Shown here in pieces: positions 22,858 through 63,898 of a DNA stretch of 64,000 nucleotides (its first letter is position 1; every line of letters starts with the position of its first letter). Origin of the DNA: an uncultured candidate division Zixibacteria bacterium (GTDB taxonomy: Bacteria > Zixibacteria > MSB-5A5 > UBA10806); assembly GCA_963817915.1 (NCBI GenBank), contig CAWFQL010000009.1, forward strand, positions 308,271 to 372,270, given 5' to 3'. The notes under the pieces are model-generated. The model did not search any database. It saw only the letters and a program-made list of their open reading frames with translations, and was not told the DNA's origin. A program made the translations under genes and the position numbers.

Positions 22858-23150
22858 AGTGGTGGCAGGTCTCCGCACCTGCCACATACACGCACTGTCG
22901 TCGGGTACGGCGACCCGACGACACGGGGAAACGCCAACGCCATAATTAATAATAATTCGTTATCAAATACAAGCTGAATTTCCCGGGCATCCGGTCGACC
23001 GTCAATATAGACTCCCCCCTAATCCGGGCAAGATTCCCGCTTTCGCGGGAATGACAATGCACAAGCACAGCTGACAAATTATTGGGCGGCAGTGGTCATA
23101 GACTGCCCCAAATGAAGTCCTAATTAAGGGCAGCCGGGACGGCTGCCGCT
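22858..23150. repeat. REP cluster: family D doublet (22858-22925), family A (23032-23055), family G doublet (23083-23150)
   Basis: GTGGCAGGTCTCCGCACCTGCCAC + GTCGTCGGGTACGGCGACCCGACGAC; GATTCCCGCTTTCGCGGGAATGAC; GGGCGGCAGT...ACTGCCCC + GGGGCAGC...GCTGCCGC. All recur elsewhere in the window. Confidence 0.85.
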
Positions 23151-28177: not shown

Positions 28178-28207
28178 CAATATGCGTGTAAGGTGTCAAC
28201 CCATCCT

Positions 28208-28275
28208 GTCATTCCCGCGAATGCGGGAATCTAAACTGAACTACACGCAAAATTCCGCAATAAATGCGGAATGAC
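28208..28275. repeat. REP doublet, family A
   Basis: GTCATTCCCGCGAATGCGGGAATC ... ATTCCGCAATAAATGCGGAATGAC. Confidence 0.85.
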
Positions 28276-34057: not shown

Positions 34058-34478
34058 AGTGGCGACAGGTCTCCGCACCTGCCGCATTAGCAGGAATTTC
34101 GTCGGGTACGGCGACCCGACGACACGGAAAATGGTACCTCGACCTTGCCCAATGAATCTTTTTCTATTCTGAATTCCATGCTTTTCTCCCGCAAAAGAGC
34201 GAATGACTGTGACACTGACTTTTCCCGCTGTCGCGGAGGGGGTTTACGGCAGCAAGCTCGCCACAGCCATTCGCCTTCTACTGTATTTGAAAACGGATTT
34301 CAAGATATATTTGTTCCGCTGGGGCTACAATAGCCTGTGGTGTCGGGTCGCCTGACCGAGCACAAGGGCAACAGGCGGGTGAGGCCACCCGACTGCACTC
34401 TGAGCAATAAATTTGTGGTGTCGGGTCGCCTGACCCGACACAATGGCTGGGTTCGAATGACGCCACCCGACTACACTC
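34058..34478. repeat. REP cluster (families D, D', E) containing a 53-nt copy of the aspA 5' end at 34131-34183
   Basis: D doublet 34058-34125; GTGTCGGGTCGCCTGACC at ~34339 and ~34418; CGGGTGAGGCCACCCGAC at ~34376. Confidence 0.85.
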
Positions 34479-37276: not shown

Positions 37277-37518
37277 TAGGGGCGGGTTTTGAAACCCGCC
37301 CTTACATTAACTACTTTAATTGAGCAGTCGAAGGTTGGGGTTGAAAATCCCGACGACTCGGTTTTTGACCATGCACTAACAGAAAGCAATTAGGCAGTCG
37401 GGTGGGGCCACCCGACTGCACTCCGAGTATAAAAAAAAGAACACGCTTGTTGTGTTGGGGTGCCTGACCCGATACAAAGGCAGCGTTCAGGTGAAGCCAC
37501 CCGATTGAACTCCGAGCA
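37277..37518. repeat. REP cluster (GTAG-type, E and D' families)
   Basis: GGGGCGGGTTTTGAAACCCGCCC; GTCGGGTGGGGCCACCCGAC; degenerate copies. Confidence 0.8.
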
Positions 37519-44058: not shown

Positions 44059-44161
44059 CGTCATGAATCCTCACTTGACCGTCCCCAGCTTAAGGTTCAG
44101 GAATGGATTTCGGCTCGGGGGCAGGAATTATATGTTGTCGGGTTTTTCAAACCCGACCTAC
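44059..44161. repeat. Degenerate family C doublet plus GTAG-type REP
   Basis: GTCATGAATCCTCACTTGACCGTCCCC...TAAGGTTCAGGAATGGATT; GTCGGGTTTTTCAAACCCGACCTAC. Confidence 0.7.
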
Positions 44162-47449: not shown

Positions 47450-47579
47450 ATTCGATTCATCGAGACATTTGGTTTTTGGTCTCCCTCCTGCTGTAAGAAA
47501 TAGAAATCGCACCCCCCTTGCAAGTTTAATCTCAAATTATTTCTCCACATTAGGATGTGGATAACTCCGCTTGTGTTCT

Positions 47580-47988
47580 GTCATTCCCGCGAAAGCGGGA
47601 ATCTTGCGAGTCTTTGCAGGATAGATTCCGCAATAAACCGACTTAGGCCCGCCGTGGCGGGTGCGGAATGATAGGTTTTTCTTTGTCATTCCTGCGAAAG
47701 CCCGTCAAGGGCCGGGCCACTGACTGGCAGAAATCTTGCGAGTCTTTGCAGGATAGATTCCGCAATAAATGCGGAATGACAGGTTCTTCTTTGTCATTCC
47801 TGCGAAAGCCCGTCAAGGGCCGGGCCACTGACTGGCAGAAATCTTGCGAGTCTTTGCAGGATAGATTCCGCAATAAATGCGGAATGACATGTTTTTTCCG
47901 CGCTGTCTTTGCAGGAAACCGGCGTCTGCCGGTCGACGAAACAATCTGTGGGTAGCCTAGAGCTCGAACCACAGGGATTCGGGCCTAC
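47580..47988. repeat. Tandem array of family A doublets (periods 105 and 108 nt) followed by family B and GTAG-type REPs
   Basis: GTCATTCC unit starts at 47580, 47685, 47793; units 2 and 3 are essentially identical. Confidence 0.9.
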
Positions 47989-48716: not shown

Positions 48717-49160
48717 GTCCGAGTTCCGTACCCGACGATATATCAGATGCTTCGCAGGGTTCAATATTGAACCCCTACATTGATTTCGTGCCCCGTAAAT
48801 AATCCATTTATGGCAATCAATCTTTTGTAGAGGCGAACCCATGTGTTCGCCCTCAAGCGCGGGCCGACACTGTAGGTCGGCCCCTACAAAGCATCTTCTC
48901 CTGTCATTCCCGCGAAAGCGGGAATCTTGCGAGCCTTAGCAGCGATAGATTCCGCAATAAATGCGGAATGACATGGTTTTGTCGCTCCGTCTTTGCGAGG
49001 AGACCGGCATCTGCCGGTCGACGAAGCAATCCGTGGGTAGCATCCTTCAGATTGCTTCATCCGCCTGCGGCGGATTCGCAATGACACTTTGGTGCGCGGT
49101 CATGAATCCTTTCATGACCGTCCCCCGCGTCGGTGTCAATAGGGGATTCCTGAAACCGCC
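48717..49160. repeat. Dense mixed REP cluster (D remnant, GTAG-type doublets, A doublet 48903-48972, B doublet 48989-49085, C doublet 49094-49160)
   Basis: At least nine hairpins matching families seen elsewhere, between convergent genes. Confidence 0.9.
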
Positions 49161-49689: not shown

Positions 49690-51240
49690 CTAATGCTTGA
49701 AATGCCTGACTCCGGTCAGCACCATAGCCACACCGGCTTGGTCTGCGGCTTTGATGACTTCGGGGTCTTGCTTACAGCCGCCCGGCTGAATCACCGCCAC
49801 CACACCGGCGTTGGCCAGCACTTCGAGCCCGTCAGGCATCGGGAAGAAGGCATCGGATGCCGCCACCGCGCCCTTGGCCTTGTCGCCGGCCTTGCGGACC
49901 GCGATCCCCGATGATTCCACGCGCGAGGTCTGCCCCGGCCCGACTCCGATAGTCGTGAAATCCTTGCAGATAACTATAGCGTTGGATTTGATATGCTTGA
50001 CCATCTTAAATGCGAACAGCAATTCGTCGATCTGGTGATCGCTCGGTTTTTTGATTGTCACGAATTGCAGGTCATCGCAAGTGATATCTTTGCGGTCTGG
50101 AGTCTGCGCAAGTAGCCCTCCGGCAATCGGGCGATAGTCGAATGATTCTGCAGGGGATGGTTTCAGATCGCCGATATCGAGCAGTCGTCGGTTCTTCTTG
50201 GTTTTGAGCAATGCCAGCGAATCAGGGTCGAATCCTGGCGCGAGGATACATTCCACGAACGCTGTCTCGTGCAATAGCTTAGCTGTCTCCATATCAATTA
50301 CTCGATTAAGCGCAATCACCGAGCCGTACGCCGATACCGGATCGGCCTCCAGCGCCTTTCTGTATGCCTCCGCCAATGTTTTCCCGATCGCCGCGCCGCA
50401 GGGATTGGTATGCTTGATCACCGCCGCGAACGGCTCTTTAAAATCCAATATCATCTGCAATCCGGCCTCGAGGTCCCAGATATTATTAAACGAGAGCTCC
50501 TTGCCGGAAAGCAGTCGGCCTTTGGCGATTGACGAATAACGATAATTCGGCGACTCATACAACGCTGCCTTCTGATGCGGATTCTCGCCATAACGAAGTG
50601 TCTCCCTGAGCCTGAATGATTGAGTGATAGGCGAACGGAAATCGTGATTGTCTTTATTGAAGTAACTATTTATGGCGCTATCATAAGCCGCTGTGCGGGC
50701 AAATGTTAACCCTGCCATTCGTCGGCGGAATTCAAGTGTCGTGTCGCCATTGTGGGATGACATCTCGGCCAGCAGTTCGGCGTAATCATCGGGGGATGTT
50801 ATCACGGTTACATGGGCGAAGTTCTTGGATGCTGAACGGATCATCGCCGGCCCGCCGATATCGATATTCTCGATAGCGTCCTCTTCGCTGACATCGGGAT
50901 TTTCGGTTACCTTCTCAAATGGATATAAATTGACCACGACCAGATCGATCGGCTCGATGCCATGCTTCTTCATCTGCGCCAAATGATCGGGCAGGTCACG
51001 ACGACCCAAAATTCCGCCATGCACTTTCGGATGAAGTGTCTTGACTCGGCCATCGAGTATCTCCGGGAATCCGGTGATATCGGAAACCGATTTGACCGCG
51101 ATCCCGGCATCCTGAAGGGTCTTCATCGTGCCGCCCGTGGAGATTATCTCGATACCATATTCGACAAGCTTTTTGCCGAACTCGACAATGCCCTGCTTAT
51201 CGTAAACTGTCAACAATGCCCTCTTAATACCCATCATCAA
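49690..51240 (-). CDS. purH: Bifunctional AICAR formyltransferase / IMP cyclohydrolase
   Basis: GRVKTLHP, IDIGGP, LRYGENPHQ, KHTNPCG, ASDAFFP. Confidence 0.98.
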   Translation of the reverse strand: MMMGIKRALLTVYDKQGIVEFGKKLVEYGIEIISTGGTMKTLQDAGIAVKSVSDITGFPEILDGRVKTLHPKVHGGILGRRDLPDHLAQMKKHGIEPIDLVVVNLYPFEKVTENPDVSEEDAIENIDIGGPAMIRSASKNFAHVTVITSPDDYAELLAEMSSHNGDTTLEFRRRMAGLTFARTAAYDSAINSYFNKDNHDFRSPITQSFRLRETLRYGENPHQKAALYESPNYRYSSIAKGRLLSGKELSFNNIWDLEAGLQMILDFKEPFAAVIKHTNPCGAAIGKTLAEAYRKALEADPVSAYGSVIALNRVIDMETAKLLHETAFVECILAPGFDPDSLALLKTKKNRRLLDIGDLKPSPAESFDYRPIAGGLLAQTPDRKDITCDDLQFVTIKKPSDHQIDELLFAFKMVKHIKSNAIVICKDFTTIGVGPGQTSRVESSGIAVRKAGDKAKGAVAASDAFFPMPDGLEVLANAGVVAVIQPGGCKQDPEVIKAADQAGVAMVLTGVRHFKH

Positions 51241-51244
51241 TCCT

Positions 51245-52162
51245 TTACACTATATCTGTACCAACTAAAATCTTGTGCGCTTGTTTGTATTTCTCCAATG
51301 TCTTAATGATCACATCATCGGGGATTTGCGGCGGCGGCGAGTTTTTATCCCAGCCACTGGTCTCCAGCCAATCGCGGATGAATTGCTTATCGTACGATGG
51401 CGGATTGGCGCCAGGCTTGTATAAATCCATTGGCCAGAAACGAGACGAATCGGGCGACAGGATTTCATCGATCAATGACAATTCGCCATTGATAAATCCG
51501 AATTCAAACTTGGTATCGGCGATAATAATCCCTCGAGTATTGGCGTAGGAATTGGCCATGGAGTAGATCGATAGCGTCGCCACCCGCAGCCGTTTGGCGA
51601 TATCCTCACCGATCATCGAAACCATCTTAGAGAATGATATATTCTCATCGTGGCCTTCCTCGGCCTTGATGGCAGGTGTGAAGATCGGTACTTCCAGTTT
51701 TTGCGCCAGCATGAGATTCGATGGGATCACATTATCATATAGACTAACTCTTTCGGCATCTGGCGATTCTATCACAAGTTTGCAATAGTCCTTCCAACCC
51801 GAACCGATCAAATAGCCGCGCGCGACACATTCGATATCGATCCGTTTGGCCTTCTTGACTATCATCGAACGGTCTTTTAGCTGGTCTTCGTATTTCAGCA
51901 GGTCCTTTGGATAATCATTAAAATCAACGATAGCTTTATGATTCGGTATAATCGCGCGGCTCAATTTAAACCAGAATAGCGACATCGAATTGAGAATCTT
52001 CCCCTTGCCGGGGACACCATTCGGCATCACCCAATCGAATGCCGAAATGCGGTCGGTGGCGATCATCAGAAGATGCTCACCGAGATCGTAAACATCGCGG
52101 ACTTTACCCCTGGCGACCAGCGGGTACTCCTTGATGTTGGTATTTAAAAGCGCCTTATTCAC
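51245..52162 (-). CDS. purC: SAICAR synthetase
   Basis: GKVRDVY, TDRISAFD, ADTKFEFG, PDSSRFW, DKQFIRDW. Confidence 0.97.
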   Translation of the reverse strand: MNKALLNTNIKEYPLVARGKVRDVYDLGEHLLMIATDRISAFDWVMPNGVPGKGKILNSMSLFWFKLSRAIIPNHKAIVDFNDYPKDLLKYEDQLKDRSMIVKKAKRIDIECVARGYLIGSGWKDYCKLVIESPDAERVSLYDNVIPSNLMLAQKLEVPIFTPAIKAEEGHDENISFSKMVSMIGEDIAKRLRVATLSIYSMANSYANTRGIIIADTKFEFGFINGELSLIDEILSPDSSRFWPMDLYKPGANPPSYDKQFIRDWLETSGWDKNSPPPQIPDDVIIKTLEKYKQAHKILVGTDIV

Positions 52163-52171
52163 AGGTCCTCC

Positions 52172-53617
52172 TTATTTCAACGCAAGATAATCGTAGCATT
52201 TGATGACATGAAATCTGGTAAGAGTTTTTCCACTTTTAATTATTAATAAATCGTCTATCTGTCCTATTTTTCCGAAATATTTCGAAAGCTTATCCCTGTC
52301 AGGTTTTGCGCGGTCATCATAAATAAAAACTGCATTATACCCCCTTAAAGTGTCCGGGTTACACCAATAATCGTATTCAAGCCCCGGCTCTCCAATGATA
52401 TTATTGCTGACGGTCTCGGGATTATCTTTCAAATAGAATGCCATCATCGAGGCGGTCTTGTATTCGTAGCCGCAGATAAAATACGGTCCCGGCATCTCCG
52501 CGCGGATTACTTCTACCTTTGCGGCCAATTCCTTCCATCCGCTGAAGTAGTCGCCCCGCCCAACATAAATATTAGGAGCAACCGCAATGATGTGTACCGC
52601 GATCAACGCCAAGGCGATGAATACCAAGCAGATATTGCCCCATACTCGCACCCATTTTTTCTCATCGCGATAATTGAAATAATAAGCTACAGCCGCGATA
52701 AACCATCCGATAAATGCCGGCGCTGTCCAGTTCATCTTGACCCATGATTTTGTCGCCAGTGGGAAAAGAAACAGGACCAGCGGAAGTGAGAATGAGATTA
52801 TCAGAATATATGCGGATGATTTTTCTATAAATGATTTCTTGATCGCCTCGATAATACCGGCGAATAATAGCGGTAACGGCAGAAATCCATAGATTGCCAA
52901 AACAGTGCCTACAAAGCCGAAGAAATAATCGGCACGGAATCTAATAAGTTCGCTGGCACGCCGTTCGGTCTGGAATAAGAAGCTGGCCCAGTGAGTAGAG
53001 TAATTCCAATATAAAACCGGCAACACGACTACAATTGAAACTGCCAAAGCTACATAAGGCCATAAAGTACGGAAATGCTGACGCCGTTCTTTCGATGAAA
53101 GTAGGAAAATGATCGTTCCCAGTCCGGCGAAGACCATTGGGTATTTGCTATCGAATCCCGCACCGAGGAAGATGCCCAATAAAATCCACCAGATATTCCC
53201 TTCATCTCTATCAATTTTGACGCAGGCAGTCATCGTAAGCACCCAAAATAGAAGCATTGGCGCATCGGGAGTTATTATCATCGCACCGAGAGCGTAGATG
53301 AATGTAAGATTAAGCACCACGACTGTCCAGAAAGCTACTATTTCATCGAATAGCATCTTGGTCAATTGATACAGCGCCAACGCCATCAGCACTGAGATTA
53401 TGATCGCCGCCAGATGAATAGCGAATCCCGACGAGCCAAACGATGTTGTCAGCCTGATAAAATAGGCGGCTATCGGCGGATGATCGAAATACGATAATGC
53501 CGGATGGCGCGAGTAATTCCAGTAATAAGCTTCTTGCGGAGCGATAGGGAGTATAATCGCGTATAAAAGCCTGAAGACGGTTATTCCAAAAAGGAATCTA
53601 TACAGCTTTTGATCCAT
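52172..53617 (-). CDS. ArnT/PMT-like GT-C glycosyltransferase
   Basis: EAYYWNYS, YFDHPP, TPDAP, SKY motifs; many TM helices. Confidence 0.88.
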   Translation of the reverse strand: MDQKLYRFLFGITVFRLLYAIILPIAPQEAYYWNYSRHPALSYFDHPPIAAYFIRLTTSFGSSGFAIHLAAIIISVLMALALYQLTKMLFDEIVAFWTVVVLNLTFIYALGAMIITPDAPMLLFWVLTMTACVKIDRDEGNIWWILLGIFLGAGFDSKYPMVFAGLGTIIFLLSSKERRQHFRTLWPYVALAVSIVVVLPVLYWNYSTHWASFLFQTERRASELIRFRADYFFGFVGTVLAIYGFLPLPLLFAGIIEAIKKSFIEKSSAYILIISFSLPLVLFLFPLATKSWVKMNWTAPAFIGWFIAAVAYYFNYRDEKKWVRVWGNICLVFIALALIAVHIIAVAPNIYVGRGDYFSGWKELAAKVEVIRAEMPGPYFICGYEYKTASMMAFYLKDNPETVSNNIIGEPGLEYDYWCNPDTLRGYNAVFIYDDRAKPDRDKLSKYFGKIGQIDDLLIIKSGKTLTRFHVIKCYDYLALK

Positions 53618-53620
53618 AGT

Positions 53621-55801
53621 TTATCTTCCGAACGCTTCCAAATCGAATACCAACGTACCCGATATTGCTATGAAGTAATGCTTTTCGGTGAGAGCTCTCG
53701 CTATATCGAAGCTGAGTATGCGCGCTGTTGCCGATTTGACCAGCCCAAGGCGAAGGCCGACTCCGACATCAGATTTCATTTGTGTCAAATCCACCTTCTG
53801 GCTGGCCCGCCAGACATTACCGCAATCGAAAAATGCCGCGCCGCCCAATCTAACTGTAAGCAGATCGAATGGCAGATAAATTCTATATTCGATATTCCCT
53901 AATGCTAACTTGGTACCTGAGTATTTGAAATACGGATAGCCTCGCAAACCGTTATCGCCACCTAATAGAACCTGATACGACGATGGCTGACGCCAGGCGA
54001 AATCAGTTAACGCGTGAATTGCCAATACTTGTCTTTCAGTGGTTTTCAAATAGATATAACCTTCGGAGATATTGCGTATCCGTTGGCTCTGGCCGCCTTG
54101 ACCGCGCCAGCTGACAGACGAAATACCGCCGACAATCAGATTGTTGAACGGCTTTACCAGGAATCTCGCCGAAACGCCGCTTATCCAGCTTTCGATATCC
54201 GCGCCGAGGCTCTTCAATGATTTTCCGAATGAGAATCCGATCGACGGCCCAAATGTCAGATCCTCAGGCGTGCCTGCCTCGTCTATATATCGTTCAACAC
54301 CATAACGAACACGCCCGACACCGATTCCAATCGATGGATACGACAATATTTCATCATGGGGAATGAGATGATTATTCAGGAGCGTATCCGAATAATAAGG
54401 GCTGTATTTATTGGCAAAATAATCGTAGGCCGCGGTCAGATTGAGCCGGTTTCTTTCGCCAAATGAATATGATGCCTGTGAATGAAAACCATCATTGACG
54501 GAATTATATCTAAAATATTCGATTCCACTATAAAACAACCTGTTTTGAGCGGTAGAATGACTATACACAGTCGCGAAAGTCGAATGGATTTTTAATGAGT
54601 ACTGGGGACGATCCAATTGAAAATAGTAATTTTTACCATAGGTAAAATTGGAATAATTGAATATGCCCTCGATACGGCTTCCTATCAAACGTCTATTCTG
54701 ATAATAAAATGACAGGCCTTTCTGATCTTTTCCAGTCTCGCCGGTCACTTCTACCAACTGCCCGGTACCCAGGAAATTCTTCTCGGCAAACAGTATACCA
54801 ATTTTATAATTGCCGCCGCCGGTCTGAATATTAGGCGCAAGCTCGGTCGTCCAGAGATCGATAGTTGTCACTTTGAGATCGACACTGTCGGCGCCGACTG
54901 GTGAGGCATTGATCACCACATCTTCAATGAATTGCGCCATACGGATATTCCGTTGGCTCTCAAGAACCCGTTCCTCATCGAGCGAATCCCCCTCGGCGAA
55001 GAGCAGCTCGCGCCGGACGATTCGCTCTTTGGTCTTCACATGGATAGCATCGGCCCATTTATAAACGAAAAACGAACCATCCTTCGACTGGTCTTCGAAG
55101 ACATTCTTGCGGACAATCTCGATTTTGCGGATGATCCTGCCATGATATTGCCTGAGATCGGTATCGTTGGCGAATACTATGGATGATATCAGGATCGTGA
55201 TTGCGAGAAGCTTAATGACAAGACCTGTCATTCCAGCGAAAGCTGGAATCTTGCCCGTTCCTTTTGGGTGGCAGTCATCTTTGATTGCCCCTTCGTATCG
55301 CACCCTTTGTGTCGGGTCAGGCGACCCGACACCACAGGCAATACCTGCCGTCTGGTTTTTCAATCCCGACCTACTACTGGTAAGACTTGTCATTCCCGCG
55401 AAGGCCCGTTGCGCGCCAGGCCCCTGACTGGCGGGAATCCAGTTTTCTTTTTTTGTCATTCCCGCGAAGGCGGGAATCTTGCCGGTTCCTTTTGGGCGGC
55501 AGTCATCTTTGATTGCCCCTTCGTATCCCACCCTTTGTGTCGGGTCAGGCGACCCGACACCACAGGCAATACCTGCCGTCAGGTTTTTCAATCCCGACCT
55601 ACTACTGGTAAGACTTGTCATTTCCGCGAAGGCGGGAATCTTGCAAGTTCCTTTTGGGCGGCAATCATCCTTAGCTGCCCCATCGTATCGCACCCTTAGT
55701 GTCGGGTCAGGCGACCCGACACTGCAGGAATCACATGATTTATTGTAGGGGCGGGTTTCAAACCCGCCCCTACGGAAGCATACTGCCAGATTAAACATCA
55801 T
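53621..55801 (-). CDS. Omp85 (BamA/TamA-like) outer-membrane protein; first 190 codons are mostly REP-derived (alternative start 55231)
   Basis: POTRA-like TKERIVRRELLF..GD; E.NFLGTGQ; LGGDNGLRGY; NIEYR; FFDCGNVW; DVGVGLR. Signal peptide IKLLAITILISSIVFA follows the repeats. Confidence 0.85.
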   Translation of the reverse strand: MMFNLAVCFRRGGFETRPYNKSCDSCSVGSPDPTLRVRYDGAAKDDCRPKGTCKIPAFAEMTSLTSSRSGLKNLTAGIACGVGSPDPTQRVGYEGAIKDDCRPKGTGKIPAFAGMTKKENWIPASQGPGAQRAFAGMTSLTSSRSGLKNQTAGIACGVGSPDPTQRVRYEGAIKDDCHPKGTGKIPAFAGMTGLVIKLLAITILISSIVFANDTDLRQYHGRIIRKIEIVRKNVFEDQSKDGSFFVYKWADAIHVKTKERIVRRELLFAEGDSLDEERVLESQRNIRMAQFIEDVVINASPVGADSVDLKVTTIDLWTTELAPNIQTGGGNYKIGILFAEKNFLGTGQLVEVTGETGKDQKGLSFYYQNRRLIGSRIEGIFNYSNFTYGKNYYFQLDRPQYSLKIHSTFATVYSHSTAQNRLFYSGIEYFRYNSVNDGFHSQASYSFGERNRLNLTAAYDYFANKYSPYYSDTLLNNHLIPHDEILSYPSIGIGVGRVRYGVERYIDEAGTPEDLTFGPSIGFSFGKSLKSLGADIESWISGVSARFLVKPFNNLIVGGISSVSWRGQGGQSQRIRNISEGYIYLKTTERQVLAIHALTDFAWRQPSSYQVLLGGDNGLRGYPYFKYSGTKLALGNIEYRIYLPFDLLTVRLGGAAFFDCGNVWRASQKVDLTQMKSDVGVGLRLGLVKSATARILSFDIARALTEKHYFIAISGTLVFDLEAFGR
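55227..55773. repeat. Composite REP array (units 162, 66, 162 nt, partial unit, GTAG-type REP)
   Basis: GTCATT unit starts at 55227, 55389, 55455, 55617. Each 162-nt unit strings families A, G, D' and GTAG-type. Ends with GTAGGGGCGGGTTTCAAACCCGCCCCTAC at 55745-55773. Confidence 0.92.
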
Positions 55802-56382
55802 TGCTCGAACATCCTCACCGCCTGAGGCAATATAATATGCTCGACCTGCAAGACCCTATCCGCCAGCGATTCCGCCGTATCGCCGGGCAACACAGGGATT
55901 GTCCGTTGAATTAGAATTGCCCCGTGGTCATATTCTTCATCCACAAAATGCACGGTCGCGCCGGAGATTCTATCACCAGATTCGATGACCGCCTTGTGGA
56001 CATTGAGGCCGTACATTCCCGCACCGCCATATTTGGGCAGCAATGCCGGGTGGATATTGATGATCCTGTTTTTGTATTTGCGGACTAATTCTATCGGCAA
56101 AAGCTTCATATACCCGGCTAATACGATTAGGTTTATTTTGTGGAATTCCAATATCGTTAACAGCTTTTCTATATACTTGCTTTCATCGGCAAATTGTCTG
56201 GCGCTGATATGAAATGATTCAATATTGTTTTGAATCGCCCGCTGGAGAACAAATGCCCCGGAGTTGTTCGAAATGACGCAGTTAATACGGCCTTTTAAAT
56301 GGCCCTTATTTATCTCATCAATTATAGCTTGCATATTGCTGCCATTTCCCGACGCTAATACTGCTATTGATAGCTCTGACAT
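55798..56382 (-). CDS. purN: Phosphoribosylglycinamide formyltransferase
   Basis: ASGNGSN, LAGYM, NIHPALLP, GATVHFVDEEYDHG. Confidence 0.96.
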   Translation of the reverse strand: MSELSIAVLASGNGSNMQAIIDEINKGHLKGRINCVISNNSGAFVLQRAIQNNIESFHISARQFADESKYIEKLLTILEFHKINLIVLAGYMKLLPIELVRKYKNRIINIHPALLPKYGGAGMYGLNVHKAVIESGDRISGATVHFVDEEYDHGAILIQRTIPVLPGDTAESLADRVLQVEHIILPQAVRMFEQ

Positions 56383-56463
56383 AGTACCTCGCATTTCATG
56401 GGGCATGAATATATTTTAAATTTGCGGAATTATCAATTTAAATAAGGGGGGGCAATCTACAGA

Positions 56464-56628: not shown

Positions 56629-58263
56629 CTATTTCAGCAATACTATTTTTAACGTATTCGAATTACGACCTGAGTCGAGTCTGGCAAAATAAACGCCGGA
56701 CGATAAATTGCCGGCATCCCAAACAACGCTATGCTCGCCCGCCTGCTGAATACCATCGAATAGAACCGCCGCCCTCTCCCCCATAATATTATAAATTGTT
56801 AGAGACACTGCCCCTGGCTCGCTGATATTATAATAGAATCGGGTTTGGGAATTGAATGGGTTTGGGAAGCTCGAAAGCAATTGATGATTTTCGGGCGGAT
56901 TAACTTCATCGCTTATGCCCGTCCTCTGAAGGCCATAGATAAGAAGCGTGGCGCCTTCAATCGCGAAAAGCTCGTCGTCACCATCGTTATTATAGTCGCT
57001 TATAGCTGTAATCCAGGCCTCGGATGAAGTCACACTGGCAGTCTGCTGGCCATTGGAACCGTCAATAAACCGCACCTCGCCATAAGGCCCAACCTGACAG
57101 GCTATTTGCGGACGGGTAAAGAGGGATGATTCATACTTGGAAATAATAGTATTTAGCCTATCAATGTGTCGCTGCCAGACTTGGCTGCCGCCACCTATAC
57201 CGCACAGTGAGAGATAATCATTCAAGCAATAGCAGATTTCCATGCCGGGGCGAGTGGGCTTGAAATCATCCATAATGGGGCCCTTTAAATCCGAATCGTC
57301 GAACTGCTGAACCTCCCATAACGTCCCTATTTGCCTGCCGGTATCGGCAGCAATAACAAACGAGTAATCGCTCCTATAGGGTATCGCCCATGGATAATCG
57401 ATCCCGCGTGATGATCCAATCGCGTAAATAAATGTGCTGTCATTTAAGATAATCGAATCTCGAAAATAAATCTTTCCGCCGCCTAACGTATATCTCAAAC
57501 CTAAATCTCCGCCTCTATACGCGTATACGACGCCATCGTTGATTCTGGTCCCAACACCACCGACATGCTGATAGTCTTCTCTGGCAACAGATAAAAATAT
57601 AGATATATCATCAGGATCGTTTGAAAACTTATTCAAGAATACCTCATAAGGTTCTTGATAATACTCAGTTATCCATTCCGAAAACGGATTCTGATAATAA
57701 TAGTTAGCCAGCCTTTTGATATATGTAACGGGGGGATCGAATGAGGCTCCATTATATGTTTCAATCCAGACAGTGTCGGAATTATCATAATTGCCATATC
57801 TCGTGAATGGCTCTTTGCTGACAACAACGATATCGCCCCAGCCATCGCCATTCCTGTCACCGATAGTGTAGCATTTATAGTTGGCGTCGACCGACGGGCT
57901 CGTCCAGATTAGGTTGTCGATATGCGGATTGAATATATAAATATTCTGGCCGGCGAAACATGAAATATCAAGCTTTGAATCATTATCCATATCGGCGAAT
58001 AGCAGGTTTTGCGGGTAATTTAAAACAGGACTGGTCCATACTGGATAATTGCCGGATGCATTATAGAAGAAAATATGATTTTCTGAACATAGCACGATAT
58101 CCTTCAGACTGTCACCATCGAAATCTTCAATGTATATTCTATTGAAGCCTTCAGATACTGGTATACTGGATATCTCGGCAAGTACCAGCGTATCTACCTG
58201 CGCTAATACCGGAGACGCAAATACGGACGCGGATAGTATCACCAACTTCAATATCTTTCCCAT
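56629..58263 (-). CDS. Secreted FG-GAP/VCBS-repeat protein with C-terminal T9SS-CTD/FlgD-like domain
   Basis: DFDGDSLKDI, DMDNDSKLDI, DRNGDGWGDI, DYNNDGDDEL; FPNPFNS...KIVLLK; GGAGG RBS. Confidence 0.85.
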   Translation of the reverse strand: MGKILKLVILSASVFASPVLAQVDTLVLAEISSIPVSEGFNRIYIEDFDGDSLKDIVLCSENHIFFYNASGNYPVWTSPVLNYPQNLLFADMDNDSKLDISCFAGQNIYIFNPHIDNLIWTSPSVDANYKCYTIGDRNGDGWGDIVVVSKEPFTRYGNYDNSDTVWIETYNGASFDPPVTYIKRLANYYYQNPFSEWITEYYQEPYEVFLNKFSNDPDDISIFLSVAREDYQHVGGVGTRINDGVVYAYRGGDLGLRYTLGGGKIYFRDSIILNDSTFIYAIGSSRGIDYPWAIPYRSDYSFVIAADTGRQIGTLWEVQQFDDSDLKGPIMDDFKPTRPGMEICYCLNDYLSLCGIGGGSQVWQRHIDRLNTIISKYESSLFTRPQIACQVGPYGEVRFIDGSNGQQTASVTSSEAWITAISDYNNDGDDELFAIEGATLLIYGLQRTGISDEVNPPENHQLLSSFPNPFNSQTRFYYNISEPGAVSLTIYNIMGERAAVLFDGIQQAGEHSVVWDAGNLSSGVYFARLDSGRNSNTLKIVLLK

Positions 58264-58369
58264 AAATCCTCCAGAATCGGTTAAGCCGGATTTATCAAGC
58301 ATTAGTTGTATGATCAAATTAATGATACAGGATTATTTTGTCAACAATTAATATCTGGCATCTTCGTTC

Positions 58370-63722: not shown

Positions 63723-63898
63723 AGTGGTGGCAGGTCTCCGCACCTGCCACAAAACCCGTCTTATCGTCGGGTACGGAGACCCGACGACACAAGCATTGCC
63801 CGCTGTAGGTCATTTCCCCTGGGAAATGACGGCGTGCTTCTTGTCAGGTCGCAGGCGACCCAATTAGCCTGTCATTCCCGCGAAAGCGGGAATCTTGC
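63723..63898. repeat. REP cluster (D doublet, GTAG-type, D' remnant, family A at 63871-63894)
   Basis: Same sequences as at 22858 and 34058; GTCATTCCCGCGAAAGCGGGAATC. Confidence 0.85.

Follow-up and report, generated by a model that had tools for sequence, protein, structure and literature searches.

A BIME-like mosaic of REP hairpins in an open frame next to the conserved start codon in an Omp85-family gene

The locus described here raises the question of what happens to a gene when a cluster of palindromic repeats separates its start codon from its signal peptide: is the cluster translated, or does the gene use another start? In a window of 64,000 nt (the whole stretch of DNA that was analyzed), an Omp85-family gene is called as an ORF of 726 aa at 53621..55801 on the minus strand, and its ATG (55801-55799) overlaps the TGA of purN (55800-55798) as ATGA. 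The first-pass annotation had described 190 stop-free codons running from this overlap through REP sequences to KLLAITILISSIVFA. This was borne out, as the gene frame has no stop between 55801 and 55232 (570 nt, 190 codons). Another in-frame ATG lies at 55231, near the end of the repeats.

Host gene and ancestral start

The gene encodes an Omp85 C-terminal beta-barrel domain (PF01103, aa 601-704, E 1.2e-10, 41.8 bits against a cut-off of 24), and the source databases label its homologues BamA/TamA family. The mature part (53621..55168, minus strand, stop codon included; 536 aa) is free of stops and frameshifts, and homologues of 535-546 aa match all of it (100% query coverage); the gene family was found in 41 of 41 relatives. 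The neighboring purN gene (phosphoribosylglycinamide formyltransferase; 55798..56406, minus strand; PF00551, E 5.7e-56) is syntenic in all 19 orthologue loci. The next gene in the operon, a PMT_2 glycosyltransferase gene that follows 3 nt past the Omp85 stop (52172..53617, minus strand; PF13231), is syntenic in 18 of these, with locus L013 ending before it. Promoter-like sites were detected only upstream of purN and terminator-like sites only on the antisense strand, while Rfam returned only sub-threshold chance hits at the locus (e.g. BSnc120, 23 bits against a cut-off of 114).

In 19/19 orthologue loci the start ATG overlaps the purN stop (17 times as ATGA and twice as ATGTTAG), with the signal peptide directly after it; the untranslated gap behind purN that had been considered earlier was seen in none. 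Homologue lengths were 321-605 aa in all 119 others listed of 191 hits (E<=1e-30). Because of the 19 orthologue starts and these shorter homologues, we take the ATG overlapping the purN stop to be the ancestral start and the array to be a lineage-specific insert. This ATG (55799..55801, minus strand) is still present with GAGGA at -15..-11, which favors translation through the array. None of these 119 listed homologues has the 726-aa form, and its uniqueness in this set counts against such translation.

Residues 1-196 of the ORF, the leader, were compared with 5.8 billion proteins of 399-1271 aa and matched only the query itself; the lack of a relative among proteins of this size again counts against translation of the array. 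Metagenome contigs give no closer relative: even the best of the five loci found there, in which the N-terminus is missing, reaches 57% identity. The short ancestral signal peptide of the form MMFNLAV...IKLL that had been expected did not appear, as the orthologues begin with MK or MR. MMFNLAV was rejected as the ancestral N-terminus for this reason, and because the sequence that follows ATGA is similar to what flanks a REP-A copy elsewhere (81% over 54 nt, C11:281767-281819; C11 and C16 coordinates refer to the host genome).

Anatomy of the array and its repeat families

Directly behind the conserved start codon lies a lineage-specific, BIME-like mosaic of ~585 nt that comprises 13 REP hairpins of five families and owes part of its length to tandem duplication, in place, of 162 nt. 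Four families had been claimed at first; blastn-short yielded five (A-E), all of which are dispersed in the genome. Counting the array's own copies, REP-A (GTAGGGGCGGGTTTGAAACCCGCCCCTAC) occurs at ~15 places, REP-B at ~55, REP-C at 21, the GTAG-tagged REP-D at 7 and REP-E at 5. The GTAG tag is carried by REP-A (GTAGGGGCGGG...) and REP-D (GTAGGTCGGG...), and families B, C and E are without it. Since 12-mers were too permissive for the repeat map, 16-mers were used instead.

In the direction of the gene (all features on the minus strand), the array opens with REP-A (55733..55781), an inverted repeat with a palindrome core at 55745-55773 and family flanks, which is 96% identical over 49 nt to C16:426196-426244. 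Three colinear 105-nt blocks, each composed of REP-B, REP-E and REP-C, make up much of the remainder. Block 1 (55616..55720) encodes VGSPDPT...IPAFAEMT and consists of families with copies elsewhere in the genome. It is followed by the 57-nt segment D1 (55559..55615), a degenerate GTAG-tagged REP-D plus linker. Block 2 (55454..55558) is identical to block 1 at 94/105 positions and to block 3 at 99/105 (blocks 1 and 3: 91/105), and leads into segment X (55388..55453), a 66-nt stretch of A-rich linker and a long REP-C variant with a 27-nt inner part. These 27 nt had been taken for a nested insert, but they are no separate local event; they are a trait of the long variant, which is also found at C11:22541-22607 (79% over ~66 nt). 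Segment D2 (55331..55387; 57 nt, 56/57 identical to D1) precedes block 3 (55226..55330), the REP-C of which holds the in-frame ATG at 55231-55229. The repeat-derived tail GGTCTTGTCATT (55214..55225) forms an AATGACA/TGTCATT hairpin with the REP-C end and is 79% identical over 47 nt to C11:300835-300881. The array unit therefore measures 105 + 57 = 162 nt and, with the single 66-nt insert, the repeats are spaced 228 and 162 nt apart. All length steps (162 and 66) are multiples of 3, as first annotated, and the copies are without small indels.

In the genome, GGAATGACAGG is read in 7/21 REP-C copies, CTTGTCATT after REP-C is found again at 5/20 other copies, and C[CT]TGTCATT stands directly 3' of 5/20 other copies. 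Because both the bases after ATGA and CTTGTCATT look repeat-derived, native sequence probably resumes only at AAG CTT (KLL...). The TGL of MTGLVI was considered as an ancestral remnant (cf. MKITGL... in the closest homologues) but a REP origin was judged more probable, since both GGAATGACAGG and CTTGTCATT are also found at further REP-C copies.

The array is the largest cluster of families A-E, and a larger tandem REP-type array lies at C11:71268-72536. Short palindromic units of A-E are present in 30 of 41 related genomes; the composite 162-nt unit was not found in 40 relatives, where matches are confined to units of 25-73 nt. Eight matches to PF01797 mark Y1_Tnp/RAYT-like genes in the genome, and three REP-D copies lie around one of these (C16:408949-409119). 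Moreover, queC (PF06508) of the same genome carries an in-frame insert of ~26 aa with a REP-B copy between its PP-loop motif and the remaining enzyme. This insert has host-gene sequence on both sides, as expected of RPE-like inserts, and is a precedent within the same genome that favors translation through the array. The array is in frame and stop-free, but the start codon is the only host-gene part upstream of it.

The open frame and the start of translation

In its other frames the array has 8 and 16 stops (sense) and 2, 2 and 6 stops (antisense). Mononucleotide shuffles were open in 3/20000 cases, but this result overstates the significance because the units are repeated, and genomic controls are the fairer test. 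Among repeat clusters of the same genome, open frames amounted to 2/120 at 260-400 nt and 0/18 at 400-800 nt (2/138 overall). Of 16 tandem arrays (period at least 45, length at least 250), a control for which TRF at the settings used did not report the studied array itself, 12 had stops in all six frames, among them the array of four 318-nt copies at C11:71268-72536 with 9-28 stops per frame. Long open frames are thus atypical of repeat clusters in this genome, and the open frame of the array is non-random.

On balance, we lean toward the view that the frame was kept open because ribosomes that initiate at the coupled ATG translate across the repeats and thereby produce a disposable leader of ~196 aa. 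Ribosomes would finish purN, restart at the overlapping ATG (55801) and translate the whole array, after which the hydrophobic core KLLAITILISSIVFA would direct the chain to the Sec machinery while the leader remains cytoplasmic. Signal peptidase would then cut after VFA, and such a cut would yield a mature protein as in relatives, with the repeat-encoded part discarded. That the array is translated, and its product exported and cleaved, is what we infer from the sequence. The native core (55169..55213, minus strand) aligns to the orthologues' signal peptides and has a putative signal peptidase site after VFA, which stands directly before ND. Apart from this core, no 13-residue window within the first 233 aa is strongly hydrophobic, LLAITILISSIVF being the top hydrophobic window. 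The leader contains 27 K+R versus 16 D+E, is rich in Gly, Pro and Ser and has no second hydrophobic segment; its net positive charge and the single hydrophobic segment fit a cytoplasmic n-region. The n-region would be of normal length with a start at 55231 and ~196 aa long with a start at 55801, and we know of no precedent for a 196-aa n-region before a cleavable signal, a point against translation from 55801.

Differences between the array copies were also inspected. About 9/17 of these fall at third codon positions, an excess that is not significant and was rejected as a coding signature. Nor were the three synonymous changes in the final REP-C accepted as a sign of coding selection, as intergenic copies vary at these positions too. 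This lack of a clear coding signature counts against translation of the array.

A different reading, which we regard as possible though doubtful, is that the gene now starts at the ATG at 55231. The array would then be an intercistronic BIME that is untranslated, or at most read to no purpose as an upstream frame; that its frame is open and in phase would be coincidental, and the 726-aa call would be over-extended. That this ATG is supplied by a REP, as the first-pass annotation stated, holds true, since it falls within the REP-C consensus GGAATGACA(A/G)G. It opens in frame a 21-aa signal peptide, MTGLVIKLLAITILISSIVFA (MTGLVIK + LLAITILISSIVFA), similar in length to those of the orthologues; an in-frame ATG exactly where a normal signal peptide would begin counts against translation from 55801. 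A start at 55231 also agrees with the lengths of the other listed homologues. In addition, REPs are mostly intergenic in this genome, where most copies sit outside long open frames and few of 79 clusters lie in open frames of at least 120 codons, and single REP units are poor in stops, with 4-5 of 6 frames open. According to Di Nocera, De Gregorio and Rocco (2013, PMC3733652), REPs annotated at the N-termini of predicted proteins are mostly extragenic and misannotated. The present array lies behind the ancestral start in an open frame; whether it counts as extragenic depends on the start that is used.

Several observations argue against a start at 55231. No Shine-Dalgarno motif (GGAG/GAGG/AGGA) is found at -15..-5 of this ATG, although the genome uses such motifs strongly, with a clear peak at -14..-8 ahead of 2094 ORFs. 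Furthermore, two bases of this ATG, the A and the U, are paired within the stem of REP-C, and the promoter scan detected no promoter-like site inside the array. A start at this position also requires a coincidence of a frame that is open (2/138 control frames), in phase and extended in 162- and 66-nt steps divisible by 3. By our own arithmetic this amounts to roughly 0.1-2%. Because the array was picked for its open frame, the estimate against chance is inflated by selection across many windows, and this weakens the case for translation of the array. Finally, the ancestral coupled ATG is still there and would feed ribosomes into the array anyway. In Neisseria, Correia/NIME-type elements are mobile repeats that provide genes with starts or promoters. 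REP-C (GGAATGACA) would resemble these if it supplied the host gene's start codon, but unlike them it brings no Shine-Dalgarno or promoter-like site, and its ATG is buried in a hairpin stem. Even if the array is translated, the ATG at 55231 may be used as an additional, minor start. Each of the two explanations offered by the first-pass annotation has thus gained something: frame-preserving growth in the n-region from the ancestral coupled start in 19/19 loci and the atypical open frame, and a REP-donated start from the ATG within REP-C.

It is very improbable, in our view, that the array marks a recently inactivated or crippled gene (an incipient pseudogene), or that its copy number and phase result from faulty assembly of a draft genome from a metagenome. 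The host genome (G000) is indeed a draft of 22 contigs, 93.9% complete, and the repeat copy number of the array is possibly misassembled as a result; units that are 90-96% identical are hard to assemble from short reads. The sole public DNA run found (X1, share 0.06) has reads over only REP-A and part of purN, and yields no array variants. Nevertheless, the intact mature part and the presence of the family in all relatives speak against inactivation. Block 1 is 10-13% divergent from blocks 2 and 3, and neutral decay over so long a time would be expected to leave several stops in 1.6 kb. Moreover, collapse or expansion by whole 162-nt units leaves the frame unchanged.

Relation to known repeats and implications

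The array is probably a larger instance of something already known, namely intragenic REPs and RPEs. Rickettsia palindromic elements are intragenic (Ogata et al. 2000/2002, as summarised in PMC10969869), and according to PMC3733652, RPE-1-decorated proteins of R. conorii are expressed and carry the elements at the N-terminus. The array resembles these in consisting of short palindromes in frame near the N-terminus, which would add non-conserved residues and leave the gene unbroken. It differs in mixing five REP families with local tandem duplication and in its coding length of ~190-196 aa, whereas repeat-encoded stretches are typically 20-30 aa, and 43-82 aa in the largest clusters, in PMC3733652. 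In addition, unlike RPEs it would lie within the removable part of a predicted signal peptide, so that the mature protein would be unchanged, and its host is Zixibacteria-like rather than a proteobacterium.

As in the BIMEs and REPtrons of E. coli, Pseudomonas and Stenotrophomonas (PMC3733652), the palindromes measure 20-40 bp and occur in tens of dispersed copies, families are mixed in one cluster, and a RAYT-like gene is flanked by REPs, here REP-D. The same source defines the REP GTAG superfamily by a GTAG tetranucleotide at one end, which A and D carry; B, C and E, without the tag, depart from it. The array also lies between co-directional genes, as BIMEs do. However, classical BIMEs are located in untranslated spacers downstream of stop codons, whereas the array stands behind a start codon with 190 open codons. 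Our literature search returned no related report on in-frame REPs in signal peptides or on palindromic repeats in Zixibacteria.

If the array is translated, its ~190 aa would be the longest repeat-encoded stretch known to us, compared with the 43-82 aa reported in PMC3733652, and selfish hairpin repeats could invade genes almost cost-free in the discarded part of exported proteins. Since signal peptidase would remove the encoded junk, selection would need only to keep the frame open. A tentative extension, which we think rather unlikely to hold, is that signal-peptide n-regions are a general safe harbor for the growth of REP arrays within coding sequences, and that such leaders perhaps also act as RNA-structure throttles that govern how many ribosomes move on from purN to the Omp85-family gene and the downstream purine genes. 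If the array is untranslated, it would be a clean case of a REP donating a new start codon after severing a gene from its coupled start. Either reading bears on start-site annotation, as the public call is 726 aa versus 321-605 aa in relatives (119 listed of 191). The locus is also a simple, testable system for ribosomes that meet 13 consecutive hairpins within an operon.

The Omp85-family gene and the origin of its insert

The 726-aa ORF on the minus strand (53621..55801) matches the Omp85 family (PF01103) at aa 601-704. Its start ATG (55801-55799) overlaps the TGA stop (55800-55798) of purN (PF00551 match), which lies directly upstream on the same strand, in the ATGA arrangement that the first-pass annotation had described. 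Both genes belong to a tight minus-strand gene string (49690-56406) that continues with a PMT_2 glycosyltransferase gene and with two minus-strand ORFs named by eye only, a likely purC (51245..52162) and a likely purH (49690..51240). The purN - Omp85 - PMT_2 order is retained in 18-19 of 19 related loci; envelope genes within a purine operon make an odd, conserved arrangement. Nearby, a 562-aa ORF (56629-58317, minus strand) has a C-terminal end that resembles, by eye only, a type IX secretion sorting domain.

The Omp85-family protein was found in all 41 related genomes. In the 19 orthologous loci examined, purN is always directly upstream; 18 have the PMT_2 gene downstream, and the remaining locus is incomplete. 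In every one, the start ATG shares bases with the purN stop (ATGA in 17, ATGTTAG in 2), and a signal peptide comes directly after it. Among the best 120 of 191 homologues (E<=1e-30), the only long protein was the window's own with 726 aa; the others measured 321-605 aa (535-546 aa for the 60 closest of full length). The homologues' names, as given by their sources, put the organism in the Zixibacteria. Because all 19 loci share the overlap and the other listed homologues lack the long form, the start in the overlap is ancestral, and the repeat array between it and the signal-peptide core is a lineage-specific insertion.

The bases right after ATGA, whose translation MMFNLAV had at first been taken for a native remnant, resemble instead the flank of another copy of the palindrome family REP-A (81% over 54 nt, C11:281767-281819). 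The consensus of the REP-C family extends through GGAATGACA(A/G)G, with ...ACAGG in 7 of 21 copies, and CTTGTCATT, which comes next after REP-C in the array, was found again behind 5 of 20 other REP-C copies. Because of these likenesses, the whole stretch from ATGA to AAG CTT (55213), ~585 nt or 195 codons, is probably repeat-derived. The ancestral N-terminus would then be MKLLAITILISSIVFA, which resembles MKLLSAIISIVIL... of one orthologue. Alternatively, the TGL of MTGLVI may consist of ancestral residues, since the N-termini of the closest homologues read MKITGL...

Composition of the array

The insert consists of repeats end to end. In gene sense, ATGA is followed first by a short leader carrying the GTAG-tagged palindrome REP-A (55745-55773) and then by three colinear 105-nt blocks, each composed of REP-B, REP-E and REP-C. 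The blocks are separated by two 57-nt segments, each with a degenerate GTAG-tagged REP-D, which complete a 162-nt unit (105 + 57); a single 66-nt insert is a long REP-C variant. Identities between blocks were 94/105, 91/105 and 99/105, the two 57-nt segments agreed at 56/57 positions, and no small indels were seen when blocks and REP-D segments were compared. The copy comparison bore out the earlier observation that the 162- and 66-nt steps are multiples of 3. The nested 27-nt insert recurs in a second long REP-C copy (C11:22541-22607) and is a REP-C subfamily trait, not a local event of its own. The first-pass annotation counted four REP families; the array holds five (A-E). The array region has a G+C content of 54% (45% genome-wide), and its RNA folds much more strongly than shuffled sequences (z = -9.3).

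Counting the array's own copies, the families occupy ~15 (A), ~55 (B), 21 (C), 7 (D) and 5 (E) places in the genome. Short REP units were found as 25-73-nt pieces in 30 of 41 related genomes, and the composite unit had no other occurrence among the genomes searched. The Y1 transposase family PF01797 has eight matches in the genome, including one gene flanked by three REP-D copies. Given the dispersed copies and this gene, the array units are REPs in the usual sense. The transposase gene itself is RAYT-like (G000:C16:408647-409410, G000 being the source genome), and with GTAG-tagged REP-D (GTAGGTCGGGTTTGAAAAACCCGAC) on its flanks the arrangement looks like a REPtron.

By conversion of contig positions, the window was found to hold five more single REP-C copies (23027-23057, 28207-28232, 47579-47607, 48902-48930 and 63870-63898), as well as REP-B (~34335-34443), REP-A (~37277-37306) and REP-D (~44141-44161). 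REP-A (GTAGGGGCGGGTTTGAAACCCGCCCCTAC, 55744-55776) also occurs, with differing flanks, in several unrelated contigs of the soil metagenome run X1, and is therefore widespread beyond the source genome. On the antisense (plus) strand, 55426-55644 contains four terminator-like hairpins followed by T-runs, with 1.2 expected; the array could be a barrier to antisense transcription entering purN.

The open frame and the choice of start

Between 55801 and 55232 the gene frame contains no stops, the other sense frames contain 8 and 16, and the antisense frames 2, 2 and 6. As a control, we considered repeat-dense clusters of the same genome, mapped by 16-mers occurring five or more times and excluding the array itself and three regions >800 nt, at least one of which is a coding repeat. 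The frames that were open numbered 21 of 138 in clusters of 150-200 nt, 15 of 126 at 200-260 nt, 2 of 120 at 260-400 nt and 0 of 18 at 400-800 nt. Long open frames are thus rare in such clusters (2 of 138 frames at 260-800 nt).

Tandem Repeats Finder (period >=45, length >=250) returned 16 arrays in the genome and, at these settings, did not report the window's own. Stops were present in all six frames of 12 arrays, with 9-28 per frame in a REP-type array of 318 nt x 4.0 (C11:71268-72536); its 318-nt composite unit shows 95% matches, and it exceeds the studied array in size. The four open arrays all have periods divisible by 3 and may be coding repeats. Since the tandem units repeat one another, only ~306 nt of the array are independent; the chance of one given frame being open is then roughly 2-5%, and that of its being open and in phase (1/3), with steps divisible by 3, about 0.1-2% by our own arithmetic, both figures being inflated because the case was picked for its open frame.

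Shine-Dalgarno motifs in this genome (GGAG/GAGG/AGGA) peak sharply at -14..-8 (first starts of 2094 ORFs >=200 aa). ATG 55801 is preceded by GAGGA at -15..-11 and retains the conserved coupling to the purN stop. It is on balance probable that the frame stays open under selection, since ribosomes that restart at the coupled ATG continue into the array; the product would be a precursor whose REP-encoded leader is disposable. An ordinary alternative, plausible though held with less confidence, is that the gene now starts at ATG 55231 within REP-C, the array being an untranslated intercistronic BIME and its open frame a coincidence. This is the default view of N-terminal REPs in the literature (PMC3733652). 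No Shine-Dalgarno motif precedes ATG 55231 at -15..-5, and its A and U are paired in the REP-C stem. The scan revealed no promoter-like site within the array, and the stretch from 55231 to the hydrophobic core contains no further canonical in-frame start. Decay of the gene or a faulty assembly is improbable; the mature part is intact despite 10-13% divergence of the blocks, which speaks against decay. Anything else is slightly less probable still.

If the array is read through, ATG 55231 may serve as an additional minor start. The 196-residue leader is rich in G, A, T, P and S (K+R 27, D+E 16), and none of its hydrophobic windows comes close to the native core LLAITILISSIVF. The leader would remain cytoplasmic while this core engages the Sec system, with signal peptidase presumably cleaving after VFA.

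In-frame repeats in queC and in known systems

Beyond the window, queC of the same genome (G000:C9:192007-192741; locus L038, 508..1245; PF06508, E 2.3e-62) contains ~26 additional residues in frame (aa 28-53), which include a REP-B copy and another small hairpin. The insert separates the PP-loop motif SGGLDS, on its upstream side, from the rest of the enzyme; aa 54 is the first residue both of the Pfam match and of the alignment to the solved QueC 2pg3_A, where it corresponds to chain residue 29. Because the insert holds REP-B, REPs of these families evidently reach fixation in frame within genes of this genome.

In the literature, Rickettsia RPEs are palindromic repeats in frame within genes (PMC10969869), and GTAG- and CGTC-tagged REPs also occur inside genes, usually as inserts of 20-30 aa or clusters of 43-82 aa (PMC3733652). 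The latter considers many N-terminal cases extragenic, and N-termini decorated by RPE-1 are said there to be expressed. Compared with the in-frame elements these texts describe, the array is far larger (~190 aa), mixes five REP families with tandem duplication, and lies between a translationally coupled start, conserved in 19/19 relatives, and a signal peptide's hydrophobic core. Nothing relevant on REPs in signal peptides or in Zixibacteria was found in the literature searched, most subscription journals being outside its scope. In-frame palindromic repeats are thus already known, and the array is a clear example of unusual size whose internal control is good; the queC insert amounts to an RPE-like event in a Zixibacteria-like genome.
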